A stretch of DNA of 64,000 bases from Escherichia phage ECML-359: sequence record OL631482.1, one strand, 5' to 3'. The notes under the pieces are model-generated. The model searched no databases, was not told where the DNA came from, and worked only from the letters and a program-made list of their open reading frames with translations. A program made the translations under genes and the position numbers. Below are positions 3,850 through 61,541 of this stretch, one piece after another. Numbering within the stretch: position 1 is the first letter of the stretch; each line of letters begins with the position of its first letter.

Positions 3850-3984
3850 GTTGAGTTAGTGAAGCTATCTTAACATGGAATTTTTAACTTGTAAACATGA
3901 TTTTTATGCCAGATGAACAATTGCATGGTATGGTCACAAAGACTCACTAGAGAAGGGTCCAGGTAACATTTGCCCAGTACCATA

Positions 3985-4012
3985 AAAATAAAGGGACCAA
4001 AGGTCCCTTTTT
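3985..4012 (-). terminator. rho-independent terminator downstream of hoc
   Basis: GGGACC-aaa-GGTCCC hairpin followed by a T-run on the minus strand. Confidence 0.6.
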
Positions 4013-4014
4013 AA

Positions 4015-7610: not shown

Positions 7611-7611
7611 A

Positions 7612-7640
7612 TAAAAAGGCCCCAACCAAAAGGAAGGGGC
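7612..7640 (-). terminator. weak rho-independent terminator (minus strand)
   Basis: GCCCC...GGGGC stem with a 12-nt loop followed by CTTTTTAT on the minus strand. Confidence 0.3.
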
Positions 7641-7668
7641 AAAACCAAAAAATGGTTAACAACACTAG

Positions 7669-7836
7669 CTAAATTAAAAGTTGGGTCTCGTTCAGTTGCT
7701 CTTCTGTATTTTCCGTAACTGGCAAACTCTGAACATAATTATAACAGGCGCCCGGATGCACCGGACCTTGGTCTGTATCCACAACCAATGCAGAATCGAT
7801 TGGAGTTTTACAGACAACACAAATCTTATCTGACAT
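7669..7836 (-). CDS. small Cys-containing protein (T4 uvsY.-2 position)
   Basis: 55-aa ORF found by hand (MSDKICVVCKTPIDSALVVDTDQGPVHPGACY...). Below the ORF-track size cutoff. Confidence 0.45.
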   Translation of the reverse strand: MSDKICVVCKTPIDSALVVDTDQGPVHPGACYNYVQSLPVTENTEEQLNETQLLI

Positions 7837-22716: not shown

Positions 22717-23085
22717 TTATGCGACTTTAATCCAATTATCTAAATTTAATTCACCTTTAGCTTTCATTTTTTCAATCAGAAGGTCTGCAGTGGTGCGACC
22801 ATTTTGATACCATGTAACATCTTCAGAATAACCAGTTTCTTCATCTTCATAGGTCTTACAACGAATCTTACCCAAAATCAAAGTTTTCAGTTCGTAGGTA
22901 TCACCAGTAAAAAAGTTTGTTACCATAATTTTCCAGGAGAAGTCATCAGAAGGACCTTCAGGAGTCATACAACCAACAAATTCAAACTGTTCTTTATACA
23001 AGTGCCATTGCATTTCTTTAGTTTCAATGGCTTTGTAACCGTCGTGGTCTTTACCTTTGATGTATGAGTTAAGATTGATTTTCAT
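22717..23085 (-). CDS. hypothetical protein
   Basis: 122-aa ORF preceded by an early promoter and the conserved leader motif. Confidence 0.5.
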   Translation of the reverse strand: MKINLNSYIKGKDHDGYKAIETKEMQWHLYKEQFEFVGCMTPEGPSDDFSWKIMVTNFFTGDTYELKTLILGKIRCKTYEDEETGYSEDVTWYQNGRTTADLLIEKMKAKGELNLDNWIKVA

Positions 23086-23106
23086 TTTATTCTCCAGTGT
23101 TTTATT

Positions 23107-23131
23107 GTGTAACTCAGTATGGAATCATTAT
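23107..23131 (-). repeat. conserved 25-nt early-leader motif, copy 1 of 4 (plus-strand gtgtaactcagtatggaatcattat)
   Basis: The same 25-mer recurs near 40358, 57266 and 61493, each immediately downstream of an early promoter -10 on the minus strand. Confidence 0.6.
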
Positions 23132-23156
23132 GCACTGGGCAAATCCTGTTGTAAAC
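23126..23156 (-). promoter_or_regulatory. T4-type early promoter (-35 GTTTACA, -10 cATAAT)
   Basis: Minus strand reads ggggTTTACAacaggatttgcccagtgcATAATGattcc. Confidence 0.5.
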
Positions 23157-23173
23157 CCCTTTATGGAAAATAA

Positions 23174-23200
23174 AAAAGGGACTCCGAAGAGTCCCTGAAC
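23174..23200 (-). terminator. rho-independent terminator
   Basis: GGGACTC-ttcg-GAGTCCC hairpin followed by TTTTTTATTTT on the minus strand. Confidence 0.6.
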
Positions 23201-23362
23201 TTATGCTTTCGGCTTACCAAAGCAAGCTGCATCGGCGCGCAATACCGCACGAGCACGAGCCTGAAGTTTATCAGTCACCTGATTGATTCGCTTGTTGGAC
23301 GCACGCTTGTAACCAGCGCGTTTGGAGGAGCCATCAACAACTTTAACTTCTTTCTTAGCCAT
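23201..23362 (-). CDS. small basic protein (53 aa)
   Basis: Hand-found ORF MAKKEVKVVDGSSKRAGYKRASNKRINQVTDKLQARARAVLRADAACFGKPKA, immediately followed by a terminator. Confidence 0.4.
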   Translation of the reverse strand: MAKKEVKVVDGSSKRAGYKRASNKRINQVTDKLQARARAVLRADAACFGKPKA

Positions 23363-23759
23363 ATTAAATTCTCTTTAAAATAGAAGCAGGACTTATTGGC
23401 ATTGCCTGCGCAAGCCCTCGAAGGGAACATTAGGTTTCGGATATTTAACGACAGGATAACCATAAACCTCGTCATCATACCTTATAGCTCTTATCTGTTG
23501 CACACCGTTAGCTTAAAGGTTCCGGGTTCGATTTCTCGAGGATAAGATATATACTGATGGATATATAGGCCTTGAGGCGTACTCCCGATTGGCCATCACC
23601 TCGGGGTAGCATGCACTTGCCGCTATAAGAATAACATTCAAGAGGTACACCGTAAAACTGCCGGGGTCTTAAAACTATAATGATTCGCAAATCATTAATC
23701 AGACGGTTCGACGGCTCCTCGATTTTCTAGCCGCACTAAGGTAGCGAATCACCTACAGC

Positions 23760-24014
23760 TTACTTCAGGGTTACGACAAAATGGCGAACAGCTTTACGGG
23801 CAGCAGATGCCAGCGGCTTAGCAAATTTCAGTTCATCTTTTGCTTCGAGCACTGCGCGAAGGTCGGTTTGAACCGGGTTAAGATGTTTGAAATACTGCAG
23901 AATTTCCAGTGCTTCGGCTTCAACATCAATAGATGCGCCGTAGTTTTCGTGACCGTTATTCCATGCAGTGCGTTGCAGTTCGAGAGCGTGTTGTAATTGT
24001 TTGTTTAAAGACAT
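23760..24014 (-). CDS. rIII: rIII lysis-inhibition accessory protein
   Basis: Start placed at internal Met24 (84 aa; T4 rIII is 82 aa); sequence MSLNKQLQHALELQRTAWNNG... Confidence 0.7.
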   Translation of the reverse strand: MSLNKQLQHALELQRTAWNNGHENYGASIDVEAEALEILQYFKHLNPVQTDLRAVLEAKDELKFAKPLASAARKAVRHFVVTLK

Positions 24015-24185: not shown

Positions 24186-24533
24186 TTACTTATAAAGACA
24201 AGGAACAGCTTTATAATGACAGGTCACAAATTTCTGCTTAACTTCTTTAGCCTGCTTAAGTCCCAGTGCAACCAGAGGATGTGGAACGTTTGCAATCTTG
24301 CCAACCGGAAGAGGAGTCAAATCACCTACTTCGCAGAATCCTTCAGGAACATCCGGACCAACCGAAAATACTTCACACATCTCCGGGATTTCACCCTGAT
24401 GGAGTTTTCCGATAACGATACCTGATGCCGTAGTTTCTTCATCACCAGCTTGCTTTGGCTCAGAAACCAAAATAATATATTCACCTACTGCTTTAATTGG
24501 TAATTCCATATTTAATCCATGTTGTTTGGTCAT
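24186..24533 (-). CDS. 31: gp31 co-chaperonin (GroES-like)
   Basis: Strong similarity to T4 gp31 (...[19 protein letters not shown]...[15 protein letters not shown]). Confidence 0.85.
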
Positions 24534-24866: not shown

Positions 24867-25100
24867 TTATTCCAAAACAGTTTTAATAGTGGTTGCATTA
24901 CGCTCTTTTAGAGCACTCAGCAGGGATTTACATTTTTCAAAAACCGGGTCCGTTTTATACCGGATGCTTTCGTCAATCCATTCGGATTTATAGTAAGACT
25001 TCCAGCGAGAGAAGAAATACTTTTTGTATTCCACCGAAAAAGAGATTATACCCGTCCCCCGAGGACTAAGGCTGGTTATTTTAACCATACGAAATTTCAT
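24867..25100 (-). CDS. hypothetical protein (T4 31.2 position)
   Basis: 77-aa ORF. Confidence 0.5.
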   Translation of the reverse strand: MKFRMVKITSLSPRGTGIISFSVEYKKYFFSRWKSYYKSEWIDESIRYKTDPVFEKCKSLLSALKERNATTIKTVLE

Positions 25101-25681
25101 TATTCACCACAAAATTCGTTAATGTTTTCCCAGTTCAATTTGTCTAGACTACGCTTAGGCACATTGAACACCTCAATTCCCGCGTTCTTCAGGATATCAT
25201 CCCAACCAGGAATATTCTTATCATACGTTTCACAGTAAACCAATTTCTTGATTCCTGATTGAGAAATTGCCTTTGCACAGTCAGGACAAGGGGAAAGCGT
25301 CACATACATAGTAGCGCCTTCAATTGACGAACCCATCCTTGCTGCAAACAGAATTGCATTAAGCTCAGCATGGATTTCGTTGTTCTTTGACCAGGCAGAA
25401 TGGGCTTCGCGATGGGCTTTCGCCAATACAAAACGGTCAACATTACTGAATCTCACACATTCTGGCTTGTGACCGGGGACGAGAACGGGTTTAGGTTTAT
25501 TCAGTAACCAACCTTGCTCTTCCGCATGCTCGCAACAGTTGACCCCACCTGCAGGGGAACCATTATACCCTGTAGAAATAATGCGCCCATTCTTTTCAAT
25601 AACAGCTCCCACTTTCCAGGAGCAACATTTGGATTCTTGAGATACAAGGTATGCGATTTGCAGAACAGTAGTTGGTTTCAT
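25100..25681 (-). CDS. cd: dCMP deaminase
   Basis: 193 aa, same length as T4 Cd; zinc-binding motifs HAE and PCPDC. Confidence 0.9.
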   Translation of the reverse strand: MKPTTVLQIAYLVSQESKCCSWKVGAVIEKNGRIISTGYNGSPAGGVNCCEHAEEQGWLLNKPKPVLVPGHKPECVRFSNVDRFVLAKAHREAHSAWSKNNEIHAELNAILFAARMGSSIEGATMYVTLSPCPDCAKAISQSGIKKLVYCETYDKNIPGWDDILKNAGIEVFNVPKRSLDKLNWENINEFCGE

Positions 25682-40334: not shown

Positions 40335-40357
40335 TTTGATTTCCTCGGTTGTTTATC

Positions 40358-40382
40358 GTGTAACTCAGTATGGAATCATTAT
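40358..40382 (-). repeat. conserved 25-nt early-leader motif, copy 2 of 4
   Basis: gtgtaactcagtatggaatcattat, as at 23107. Confidence 0.6.
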
Positions 40383-40408
40383 GCCTTAGCTCAAAGGACT
40401 TGTACACT
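40377..40408 (-). promoter_or_regulatory. early promoter (GTGTACA -35, cATAAT -10)
   Basis: Minus strand reads aaaaagtaGTGTACAagtcctttgagctaaggcATAATGattcc. Confidence 0.5.
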
Positions 40409-40421
40409 ACTTTTTGAAAAT

Positions 40422-40444
40422 AAAAAAGGGACCCGAAGGTCCCC
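40422..40444 (-). terminator. rho-independent terminator downstream of gene 32
   Basis: GGGACC-cgaa-GGTCCC hairpin followed by a T-run. Confidence 0.65.
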
Positions 40445-54536: not shown

Positions 54537-54585
54537 TTTAATTTACTCAAGTATTCAATAAGACATTCAATTATTCAGTAAGGGT

Positions 54586-54616
54586 ATTATACTATTATTC
54601 CTCTGGGTTGTACACA
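54586..54616 (-). promoter_or_regulatory. early promoter upstream of asiA (GTGTACA, 17 nt, TATAAT)
   Basis: Minus strand reads aatcatGTGTACAacccagaggaataatagTATAATaccc. Confidence 0.5.
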
Positions 54617-54759
54617 TGATTTTCCATCTGTACAACATATTCCTGATACATCTGTTCAACTGGTTCCTGGAACTTAAAATCAGCTCCAAGGAATTCCTCA
54701 AAGCAAGCCTGCTCGTGCGTACGTTGACCGGTGATGGTGTTCTCTAAGTTATGACTCAT
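54595..54759 (-). CDS. hypothetical small acidic protein (54 aa)
   Basis: Hand-found ORF MSHNLENTITGQRTHEQACFEEF... with an AGGGAA RBS; its 3' end overlaps the asiA promoter. Confidence 0.3.
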   Translation of the reverse strand: MSHNLENTITGQRTHEQACFEEFLGADFKFQEPVEQMYQEYVVQMENHVYNPEE

Positions 54760-54868
54760 AATGATTCCCTTTGTGCTTCTGCTTACGTTTGGACTGCATT
54801 TTGGTTTTCTTCTTGTCCTTATGGACAGACGCCTTATTGAAATCGTGCTTAGCTACCAGATTGTTCAT
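54749..54868 (-). CDS. hypothetical small lysine-rich protein (39 aa)
   Basis: Hand-found ORF MNNLVAKHDFNKASVHKDKKKTKMQSKRKQKHKGNHYES with an AAGGAAA RBS. Confidence 0.3.
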   Translation of the reverse strand: MNNLVAKHDFNKASVHKDKKKTKMQSKRKQKHKGNHYES

Positions 54869-57236: not shown

Positions 57237-57265
57237 TTTATTCTCCAAAGTTTTTGTGATTCATT

Positions 57266-57290
57266 GTGTAACTCAGTATGGAATCATTAT
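57266..57290 (-). repeat. conserved 25-nt early-leader motif, copy 3 of 4
   Basis: gtgtaactcagtatggaatcattat. Confidence 0.6.
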
Positions 57291-57316
57291 GCATCAGGTC
57301 AAGGGTCATGTACACT
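57285..57316 (-). promoter_or_regulatory. early promoter (GTGTACA -35, cATAAT -10)
   Basis: Minus strand reads aaaaaagtaGTGTACAtgacccttgacctgatgCATAATgattcc. Confidence 0.5.
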
Positions 57317-57338
57317 ACTTTTTTAAATATTTTAAAAT

Positions 57339-57362
57339 AAAAAAGGACCCCGAAGGGTCCTA
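57339..57362 (-). terminator. rho-independent terminator
   Basis: GGACCC-ttcg-GGGTCC hairpin followed by a T-run. Confidence 0.6.
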
Positions 57363-58834: not shown

Positions 58835-58842
58835 ATATCACC

Positions 58843-58983
58843 TTACCAGATTAACGAATGTACTGCCATTATAGCATCAGAAATAAAAAGCACAACCTGC
58901 ACTAACGCAAACACAACTCCGTAATACAGCGCCACCAATAAGGTAGCAAGGACTAACGAGTAGCCCAAGATTTTCTTAATCAT
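58843..58983 (-). CDS. small membrane protein (46 aa)
   Basis: Hand-found ORF MIKKILGYSLVLATLLVALYYGVVFALVQVVLFISDAIMAVHSLIW; overlaps the upstream ORF stop by 8 nt. Confidence 0.4.
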   Translation of the reverse strand: MIKKILGYSLVLATLLVALYYGVVFALVQVVLFISDAIMAVHSLIW

Positions 58984-59131
58984 TTTTATCCAATAATTTA
59001 AATAGTGATAAAACTGCTAATACACCTTGAGCTGTTGACTGCAGAAATACTGAAGTTTCACCAGTTATTAATGTTCCAACAAATAAAAATGACCAGCAGA
59101 AAAAAGCTACACCATGAACAAATTTATTCAT
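58976..59131 (-). CDS. small membrane protein (51 aa); possible ac homologue by size and position
   Basis: Hand-found ORF MNKFVHGVAFFCWSFLFVGTLITGETSVFLQSTAQGVLAVLSLFKLLDKND with a GAGGA RBS. Confidence 0.4.
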   Translation of the reverse strand: MNKFVHGVAFFCWSFLFVGTLITGETSVFLQSTAQGVLAVLSLFKLLDKND

Positions 59132-60780: not shown

Positions 60781-60897
60781 TCAAAAGAAATAGTTAAAGT
60801 AAACACGCACATGGTCAATCATAAAAACAATTGGGAAAATGCTCAGGACAACAAACAGTACAAACATGTTCCAAATGGCTTTAAGTAACTTTTTCAT
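60781..60897 (-). CDS. small hydrophobic peptide (38 aa)
   Basis: Hand-found ORF MKKLLKAIWNMFVLFVVLSIFPIVFMIDHVRVYFNYFF with a GGAG RBS, downstream of an early promoter. Confidence 0.35.
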   Translation of the reverse strand: MKKLLKAIWNMFVLFVVLSIFPIVFMIDHVRVYFNYFF

Positions 60898-60923
60898 AAT
60901 CATCTCCAGTAGTTGATAGGTTC

Positions 60924-60952
60924 ATTATACTACAACCACTGGAGATGTACAC
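60924..60952 (-). promoter_or_regulatory. early promoter (GTGTACA, TATAAT)
   Basis: Minus strand reads aaaagagtGTACAtctccagtggttgtagTATAATgaa. Confidence 0.45.
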
Positions 60953-61042
60953 TCTTTTATGCAAGTTTCATTAATAATAAACTAAAACAAACGCAAATTA
61001 CTGGGATACACAGCATCCAGATAAGGCACCAGGTTTTGCTGC

Positions 61043-61475: not shown

Positions 61476-61492
61476 TTTATTCTCCAGTATTT

Positions 61493-61516
61493 GGTAACTC
61501 AGTATGGAATCATTAT
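61493..61516 (-). repeat. conserved early-leader motif, copy 4 of 4
   Basis: ggtaactcagtatggaatcattat (one 5' mismatch). Confidence 0.55.
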
Positions 61517-61541
61517 ACATAGACGCCATACTGATGTACAC
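61511..61541 (-). promoter_or_regulatory. early promoter (GTGTACA -35, TATAAT -10)
   Basis: Minus strand reads aaaaagtaGTGTACAtcagtatggcgtctatgTATAATgattcc. Confidence 0.5.

Follow-up and report, generated by a model that had tools for sequence, protein, structure and literature searches.

Very probable array of conserved structured RNA modules in the spacer between rIII and gene 30.9 of T4-type phages

What occupies the long spacer between rIII and gene 30.9 in Escherichia phage ECML-359? In the 64,000-nucleotide (nt) stretch of its sequence record OL631482.1 that was analysed here (the window), these two minus-strand genes are separated by a gap of 397 base pairs (bp) at 23363-23759. A preliminary description of the window had singled out this gap as unusually long, and comparison bore this out. 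In VR26, a close relative with a curated annotation, the equivalent gap between 30.9 and rIII measures 398 bp, longer than any other among the 73 intergenic gaps of a 49-kb region; the second-largest is 169 bp and most are shorter than 75 bp. A non-coding spacer is kept at this position in all Tevenvirinae examined. In T4 it spans 244 bp (NC_000866, 130541-130784) and no feature is annotated there, in a record that does annotate rnaC and rnaD.

We consider it very probable that the gap encodes, on the minus strand, a series of structured RNA modules that have been conserved. Comparison among phages shows each module to have its own predicted closing helix and a predicted independent fold, with strong purifying selection on both structure and loops, and shows each to behave as a cassette that is present, absent or re-ordered from one phage to another. 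The suggestion in the preliminary description of a small structured RNA therefore survives in altered form: covariation supports structure, but there are several such RNAs in the gap, not a single one, and the minus strand carries them. The five modules, defined as blocks by comparison of spacers using BLAST, are each single-copy in the window and are read in the RNA order E-D-C-B-A:

23727-23753, minus strand: module E, a small hairpin with the core CGCUACCUUAGUGCG at 23732-23746, followed by GAAAAU
23632-23726, minus strand: module D, a 95-nt irregular hairpin of four stacked helices, P1 (GAGG/CCUC), P2 (GCCGU/ACGGU), P3 (AACCGUC/GGCAGUU) and P4 (AAUGAUU-UGCG-AAUCAUU)
23480-23630, minus strand: module C, a 151-nt four-way junction (RNAalifold, gene-sense strand) with zero unpaired junction nucleotides
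23622-23626 with 23484-23488, minus strand: closing stem P0 of module C, formed by its flanks
23568-23621, minus strand: arm P1 of module C, long and irregular
23548-23567, minus strand: arm P2 of module C, a 7-bp hairpin with UAUAUA arms
23489-23547, minus strand: arm P3 of module C
23429-23478, minus strand: module B, an H-type pseudoknot, in which S1 pairs GACGAGG (23467-23473) with CCUGUC (23450-23455) and S2 pairs GGUU (23458-23461) with AACC (23433-23436)
23386-23428, minus strand: module A, the candidate leader of gene 30.9, with hairpin A1 (CCCUUCGAGGG, 23415-23425), the hinge CUUGCG and hairpin A2 (GCAGG...CCUGC, 23386-23409)

The gap is the best-conserved DNA of its neighbourhood. 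About 1000 T4-type phage records match it, in blocks: coverage reaches 98-100% in some genomes and about 60%, in two pieces, in T4-type ones, while phages of Klebsiella, Enterobacter and Edwardsiella match only the central 135 bases, at 93-96% identity in those matches. When module C of the window was compared directly with its counterparts in KpV477, PEi20, a Karamvirus and Kpn BM7, identity was 91-95%, as against only 69-81% for rIII, 30.9 and gene 31 in the same four pairs. For modules A, B and D, the window and T4 share 95-98% identity, and for the genes 77-84%. Such conservation, combined with the compensatory changes described below, is not what would be expected if a lost gene or a mobile element had left a decaying remnant here, and this earlier suggestion was abandoned.

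Covariation was assessed for module C in an alignment of 15 distinct sequences, which included the divergent Pseudotevenvirus copies from JC221 and Citrof4. The fold comprises 47 pairs, and 97.4% of its 703 cells are paired. Changes on both sides were seen in 21 of the 47 pairs, compared with 7.9±1.9 in column shuffles (0 of 500 shuffles reached the observed number) and 1-5 when pairing partners were slid by 1-3 columns. All 5 pairs of helix 1 have changed on both sides. Arm P3 divides into two hairpins, one capped by a GNRA tetraloop and the other by a near-invariant 15-nt loop, GAACCUUUAAGCUAA. A stretch of about 27 nt in module C, GGAACCUUUAAGCUAACGGUGUGCAAC, hardly differs between Tevenvirinae and Pseudotevenvirus. 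The window copy matches model R2 at 176 bits on the minus strand. Two motifs pointed out earlier take on a different meaning in this fold. The direct repeat GATATATA is indeed present, at 23546 and 23560, but it is not a functional direct repeat: because TATATA is self-complementary, its copies are the two arms of hairpin P2. The T-loop-like GGTTCGATT is likewise found at 23525, but as antisense sequence, the complement of the GNRA hairpin UCGA-GAAA-UCGA of P3.

Module D was examined in an alignment of 13 distinct sequences that included the copies from phages A5-4 and SU10, and 98.6% of its cells are paired. Here 11 of 25 pairs are doubly changed, compared with 2.0±1.3 in shuffles (0 of 500) and 0-1 in the slid controls, and the window copy matches model R1 at 117 bits on the minus strand. 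The internal loops CUGAUUA, UAUAGUUUUA and UUUU are near-invariant; variable columns account for 6 of 33 unpaired positions, as against 26 of 50 paired ones. In module B both stems covary. Stem 1 occurs as GAC/GUC, GUC/GAC, GUG/CAC, GGC/GCC and GUU/AAC, and stem 2 as GGUU/AACC, GUGAG/CUCAC and GUAGUU/AACUAC. Among 11 distinct variants of module B, 8 of 12 pairs are doubly changed, a number equalled by 3 of 2000 shuffles. A linker, GUUAAAUAUCC (23439-23449), is conserved within the module, which is itself preceded by AUGAUG. By eye, hairpin A2 of module A varies as GCAGG/CCUGC, GGGAGC/GCUCCC and GGGAAC/GUUCCC, and in module E some pairs are G:U in one and A:U in the other when the window is compared with T4.

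The folded RNA corresponds to the gene-sense (minus) strand. When the same pairs were read on the opposite strand, pairing dropped from 97.4% to 90.3% for module C and from 98.6% to 90.8% for module D, because the alignments contain 53 and 26 G:U cells, respectively. In addition, the tetraloops GAAA/GUAA of module C and UGCG/UACG of module D, the latter of UNCG type, read as such on the minus strand only. These data thus display what is generally looked for in a conserved structured RNA, namely covariation above both shuffled and slid controls and a strand asymmetry in G:U pairs.

Module orientation is constant across phages, while presence and order vary. The order is E-D-C-B-A in the window, E-D-B-A in T4, D-F-B-A in RB69 and Bp7, F-B-A in a Mosigvirus, C-B-A in a Karamvirus and G-B-E-C-A in KpV477 and Kpn BM7; PM2 has G-B plus other sequence. 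Module E precedes D in the window and in T4, precedes C in KpV477-type phages, and is also found beside the divergent C copy of Yersinia phage JC221. Module A is the last module before 30.9 in every Tevenvirinae spacer compared and adjoins the 30.9 ribosome-binding site. Modules F and G are small hairpins in which compensatory changes were recognised by eye. Module F (CAYG..CAGM-AAAAGGUUA-KCUG..CRUG) lies between D and B in other genera (RB69, locus 732-994; Bp7), and module G, with the loop UGUACG, follows rIII in others (Kpn BM7, PM2). A further arrangement was seen in the T4-type metagenome contig QZLZ01027750.1 (about 850-1000), in which D-C-B-A1 is present and A1 runs straight into mid-30.9 coding sequence. 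Gene 30.9 appears to be truncated in this contig and the RNA modules are intact, the D copy having more compensatory changes in P3 and P4.

The modules were also found outside the slot between rIII and 30.9. Among 50,697 phage records, 406 contain module C and 657 contain module D. Searches of 5,426 E. coli genomes and 72,556 plasmids found neither module, so that blastn detects no similarity between them and any sequence of a host or plasmid. A loose pattern for module D, applied to 185,579 genomes (one per species), gave 36 matches, of which the covariance model accepted 1, a Kuravirus contig filed in a bacterial metagenome-assembled genome. Module C is carried by 13 metagenome contigs, with a T4-type context in all those examined. 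A scan of viral contigs with an AT-rich 15-mer returned 120 chance matches and was uninformative.

In the Vequintavirinae phage A5-4, D plus B lie inside a 675-bp stretch that has no open reading frame (ORF) longer than 41 codons, downstream of a sigma-70-like site and directly upstream of a sequence resembling a transfer RNA (tRNA), a tRNA-Met and an rnaD-like sequence. The sister phage A73 has D and lacks exactly the 61-nt B unit. Both phages retain AAGAGAAUUUA of the 30.9 ribosome-binding region, A5-4 after D-B and A73 after D, from which we infer that the DNA was captured from a T4-type phage. The same cluster contains sequence 93-100% identical to parts of T4 rnaD (A5-4 locus about 1200-1300 and 1395-1480; also A73). 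It also contains a tRNA-like element that ARAGORN did not call, with the acceptor GCGCGGG/CCCGCGC, the T arm GAAGG-UUCGAGU-CCUUC and the 7-nt loop CUUCUAA. In the Stephanstirmvirinae phage arall, a block E-D-B-A nearly identical to that of T4 lies in the tRNA cluster. This block (locus about 1340-1700) appears to be circularly permuted, with the start codon of 30.9 joined to the final ~25 codons of rIII, and TTTATT flanks it on both sides; the arrangement is suggestive of capture by way of a circular or tandem intermediate.

Within Kuravirus, module D is present in 28 of 74 matching records. Comparison of SU10 with phiEco32 revealed a clean insertion of about 95 nt, which corresponds exactly to the D fold; the stop codon of a gene lies on one side of it and the terminator ahead of terL on the other. 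In A5-4 and SU10, module D is 79-85% identical to the T4 type, and every helix is kept through compensatory changes, indicating that the fold was maintained after transfer to contexts that have neither rIII nor 30.9. Pseudotevenvirus phages carry the divergent module C between uvsW.1 and uvsY.-2 (JC221, locus 1486-1643; Citrobacter phage Citrof4, locus 1484-1639), so that the same RNA occupies a different genomic slot in another genus. These copies score 114-118 bits with model R2, and E copies and an A1-like hairpin are found nearby. We take the region of uvsW.1 and uvsY.-2 to lie near the map position of T4 oriF.

We searched the locus for genes, known RNAs and transcription signals. ARAGORN found no tRNA in the whole 64-kb window, and in five homologous loci none except the true tRNAs of A5-4. 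The 4227 models of Rfam 15 gave no match in the 64 kb at their gathering thresholds. When the search was relaxed to an expectation value (E) of 10 or less on progressively smaller pieces, only chance-level small nucleolar RNA, microRNA and turnip yellow mosaic virus element matches (E 4-7), far under threshold, were obtained inside the gap, and nothing in 23480-23765. None of the pistol, hammerhead, twister, hatchet and hepatitis delta virus ribozyme models scored at this level in the gap. The silence of Rfam ruled out a group I intron, a riboswitch, a known ribozyme or a known small RNA, and the earlier failure to fold a cloverleaf agrees with ARAGORN and with the lack of an Rfam tRNA match at E≤10. 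The preliminary description had also named the want of a covariance-model hit among the results that would speak against its reading; no Rfam model matches, yet de novo covariation is strong, and that argument does not apply here.

Its view that the gap has no credible reading frame was upheld. Stop codons occur in all six frames of the module C core (137-144 nt) in nearly all of the 15 homologues. The frame that starts at AUGAUG by module B ranges from 10 to 67 codons among homologues, stopping after 10 codons in KpV477. No frame is conserved both in frame and in length among homologues of the gap, so the comparison with relatives that had been proposed revealed no conserved ORF. The 'hypothetical proteins' annotated within the gap in GenBank differ in strand and frame between records. 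Such inconsistent calls cover the RNA modules in loci L002 (1415-1558), L143 (1514-1731), L152 (1174-1323) and L144 (750-968), and gp30.9 itself is labelled '1,4-alpha-glucan branching enzyme' in several public records; both look like annotation artefacts.

No promoter-like or terminator-like site was detected within 23363-23759 on either strand, and the T4 late-promoter sequence TATAAATA is absent from both strands of the gap. Several motif assignments were considered by eye and dropped. The GGCUUGCG of module A was rejected as a MotA box for want of a TAnnnT at the right spacing. Misfit to the respective consensus disposed of a box C/D or kink-turn reading of AUGAUGA plus CUGA, of a GAAA 11-nt receptor in UAUGG/CCUAAU of module B, and of a sarcin-ricin or k-turn motif in the internal loop of module D.

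These results bear on several other explanations of the gap. The presence of a gene for a tRNA or something like one, of a group I intron or of a missed small protein gene might be suggested by GGTTCGATT at 23525 on the plus strand and by the short ORFs annotated in several GenBank records, but ARAGORN and the Rfam tRNA and intron models (E≤10) are silent, GGTTCGATT is antisense, the module C core has stops in all six frames and the annotated ORFs are discordant in strand and frame; we regard the chance of such a gene as negligible. The modules might instead be selfish or DNA-level elements, such as cassettes of the miniature inverted-repeat transposable element type or signals for single-stranded DNA recombination or replication, or might appear conserved through recent horizontal transfer. 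Presence/absence polymorphisms with clean boundaries, transfer into unrelated phage families, the TTTATT-flanked arall copy that looks circularly permuted and the divergent Pseudotevenvirus C beside uvsW.1 and uvsY.-2 are all in keeping with this view. However, there are compensatory changes over all helices, which indicates selection on the fold, and GNRA and UNCG loops on the transcribed strand, which indicates that the folded molecule is RNA. The terminal 'inverted repeats' of module C covary rather than being conserved, as expected of an RNA stem and not of transposase sites, and no transposase or homing endonuclease gene is adjacent. A DNA-level explanation is accordingly given little weight. 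One or more modules could, alternatively, be self-cleaving ribozymes or processing signals that cut a polycistronic RNA. Modules do lie at junctions where separate RNA species would need cutting, and pistol ribozymes are often associated with phages (PMC4604425). Module B and the env25 pistol sequence share a pairing of the P1 loop with downstream sequence and an identical 9-nt segment, CGUUAAAUA, directly after P1 (PMC6101554). Nevertheless, module B has no P2, P3 or two-nucleotide GU junction, and nothing that follows it in A5-4 could supply them; Rfam ribozyme models are silent at E≤10. An A-rich strand after stem 1 is, moreover, common in H-type pseudoknots generally. This makes a ribozyme or processing signal improbable, if by a hair less so than a DNA-level element.

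Two further explanations place the function of the modules in cis. The modules might act on RNA polymerase to cause processive antitermination, like the put RNAs of phage HK022, allowing readthrough of downstream terminators. In SU10 the intrinsic terminator before terL follows module D by ~20 nt, and in the window the terminator of 30.9 (23177-23196) is downstream of D; the module is orientation-specific, self-contained and portable between transcription units. Against this, the same terminator and terL are found in phiEco32 although D is absent there, no Rfam family proved similar in sequence or shape, and an array of several different modules would be unexpected; the idea draws on position alone, and we think it improbable, although slightly less so than self-cleavage. 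A better candidate is a set of untranslated-region elements that protect the rIII/30.9 mRNA against exonucleases, RNase E or RegB, that block the loading of Rho on a long spacer without translation, or that control translation of 30.9. In Tevenvirinae the array is always part of the rIII-30.9 transcription unit, in every genus module A borders on the ribosome-binding site of 30.9, there is no internal promoter or terminator, and GGAG, the RegB cleavage motif of T4, is conserved at the 5' edge of D. On the other hand, D and B are kept, with compensatory changes, where rIII and 30.9 are missing, in the tRNA cluster of A5-4 and A73 and, for D, upstream of Kuravirus terL. Near-invariant loops of 10-27 nt across genera are not needed by simple protective hairpins, and five different modules in a row exceed a single protective role. 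We therefore judge a role in the untranslated region rather unlikely, while according it real weight.

The function that we favour instead is that of stable RNAs acting in trans. As the array has no internal promoter or terminator, it would be transcribed within the rIII-30.9 RNA. T4 rIII has been reported to be under early, middle and late promoters (PMC9409239), in which case RNA from the array would be present throughout infection. Modules D, C and B may be stable structured RNAs that are either cut out or left over as fragments resistant to decay. With their invariant loops they would engage a protein or RNA partner of host or phage, for example as a decoy, an aptamer or a component of a ribonucleoprotein, and they would not regulate the adjacent genes. 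Module A, in contrast, would most simply be a cis-acting leader of gene 30.9, because it is always beside the 30.9 ribosome-binding site; the earlier proposal of a regulatory leader may thus hold for module A but not for the other modules. A function in trans is favoured because D and B persist in a tRNA cluster that encodes only RNA, and D also upstream of an unrelated gene, because loop sequence is more constrained than the stems, and because several different modules are lined up like tRNA genes. Taken as one whole statement, the structured array together with a trans-acting stable-RNA function appears to us evenly poised between being right and being wrong.

Several points weigh against this interpretation. 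Folded as a whole, the gap has a minimum free energy that does not improve on that of shuffled sequences (z -0.11 for the minus strand and +0.45 for the other strand), so that the case for structure is a comparative one throughout; folding of a single sequence would have missed the structured modules. The alignments consist of 11-15 distinct sequences, many of them closely related, and the shuffle statistics consequently overstate independence; the slid-partner controls are fairer and are also clear. Module B was aligned by hand with the pairing in view, since its MAFFT alignment was inconsistent with the structure, and its statistics are for this reason weaker than those of C and D. The array always occupies the same mRNA slot in Tevenvirinae, which fits a cis role as well. 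Finally, any discrete RNA species and their processing sites are hypothetical.

A broader possibility, put forward only tentatively, is that T4-type phages carry several apparently undescribed RNA families (D, C, B, F and G) that are trans effectors, for example decoys or aptamers directed against a host defence or RNA-processing factor, or else a new ribozyme class, and that spread as portable cassettes among unrelated virulent coliphages of Straboviridae, Vequintavirinae, Stephanstirmvirinae and Kuravirus. The structured RNA families are in any case apparently undescribed and are present in T4 itself. The T4 genome is among the best studied, yet its 244-bp spacer has remained unannotated. 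At least 5-7 separately folding modules lie in that spacer and in its longer equivalents in relatives; they have no counterpart in Rfam and have been exchanged with unrelated coliphage families. Being small (60-150 nt) and genetically tractable, the modules are candidates for new functions of phage RNA in a model for which deletions, compensatory mutants and panels of host defences are in routine use, and the module map corrects the recurrent, spurious 'hypothetical protein' calls in many GenBank records.

The array is embedded in a minus-strand gene order of cd, gene 31, rIII, the gap, gp30.9, an intrinsic terminator and gp30.8. The surrounding features are as follows:

25100-25681, minus strand: cd
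24186-24533, minus strand: gene 31
23760-24008, minus strand: rIII, lysis inhibition accessory protein (phrog_1457, E 3e-42; named rIII in relatives), the upstream gene of the transcription unit
23363-23385, minus strand: AU-rich spacer that holds the Shine-Dalgarno-like AAAGAG of gene 30.9 and contains AAGAGAAUUUA
23201-23362, minus strand: gp30.9, very basic, 53 amino acids (phrog_1427, E 3e-26), the downstream gene of the transcription unit
23177-23196, minus strand: intrinsic terminator after gene 30.9, with an 8-bp stem, a UUCG loop and a U tract
22717-23085, minus strand: gp30.8

The name gp30.9 is carried in the VR26, T4 and RB69 annotations, and the terminator at 23177-23196 is the first terminator-like site downstream of rIII. 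A cassette of ~95 bp, in which an intrinsic terminator is followed by a T4 early-promoter-like site (TTTACA-17-CATAAT), occurs four times in the window at 72-90% identity (23101-23195, 40352-40443, 57260-57360 and 61488-61519); it resembles the PeSL (promoter-early stem-loop) cassettes discussed below. A crude ORF-coverage scan also returned five other stretches of the window, 165-287 bp in length, that have no ORF of 60 codons or more: 54562-54848, 58835-59113, 7611-7834, 60819-61042 and 3850-4014.

How do the modules compare with RNA elements already described? We found no description of an RNA in the rIII-30.9 spacer in the literature searched, which did not extend to the older T4 papers or the 2003 genome review, and a T4 omics paper lists RNAC and RNAD alone. 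Structured-RNA candidates from viruses were obtained in bulk by Fremin et al. 2023 (PMC10690425), with the use of comparative genomics and covariation on IMG/VR phage contigs. The main text of that paper names no T4-like or Straboviridae motif, and an anonymous listing in its supplement is possible. Likeness to the pistol ribozyme (RF02679; env25) is confined to a sub-structure, its 5' half: the P1 hairpin of module B, the pseudoknot between its loop and downstream sequence, and CGUUAAAUA. Pistol ribozymes have P2 and P3, a pseudoknot strand placed between the 5' strands of these helices, and a strict two-nucleotide GU cleavage junction (PMC4604425), whereas in module B the pseudoknot partner follows P1 by 13-15 nt with no intervening P2 strand. 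Inspection of the sequence downstream of B in the window, T4, KpV477 and A5-4 found neither a P2 partner nor a P3-GU-P2 arrangement. With P2, P3 and the GU junction missing and the Rfam model silent, module B was rejected as a pistol ribozyme.

Another H-type pseudoknot stands in the leader of the T4 gene 32 mRNA, where it is the nucleation site for autoregulation by gp32 and is conserved among relatives. Both it and module B belong to untranslated T-even mRNA, but they differ in sequence and position, and module B, unlike the gene 32 pseudoknot, is not tied to a gene: it shifts within the gap and into the tRNA cluster of an unrelated phage. In their mobility the modules recall the PeSL elements, which Arbiol and colleagues reportedly presented in 2010 as mobile regulatory cassettes, short and non-coding, that are shuffled between intergenic regions of T4-type phages. 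Both are short, non-coding, shuffled intergenic cassettes. The modules, however, are promoterless, single-copy in the window, more elaborate and conserved across genera; the repeated combination of early promoter and stem-loop that marks a PeSL is found not in them but in the adjacent cassette at 23101-23195.

The nearest analogues in kind are rnaC (species 1) and rnaD (species 2) of the T4 tRNA cluster, which are phage-encoded, non-coding, 100-150 nt long and co-transcribed. A blastn-short comparison of rnaC and rnaD with the window and all loci gave no match in the gap, and hit the rnaD-like sequence of A5-4 beside D-B. While rnaC and rnaD are stable RNAs of a tRNA cluster, the Tevenvirinae modules lie inside an mRNA between protein genes and are known here from their sequence. 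In A5-4 and A73, by comparison, modules stand in the same RNA-only cluster as tRNA-Met and the rnaD-like sequence.

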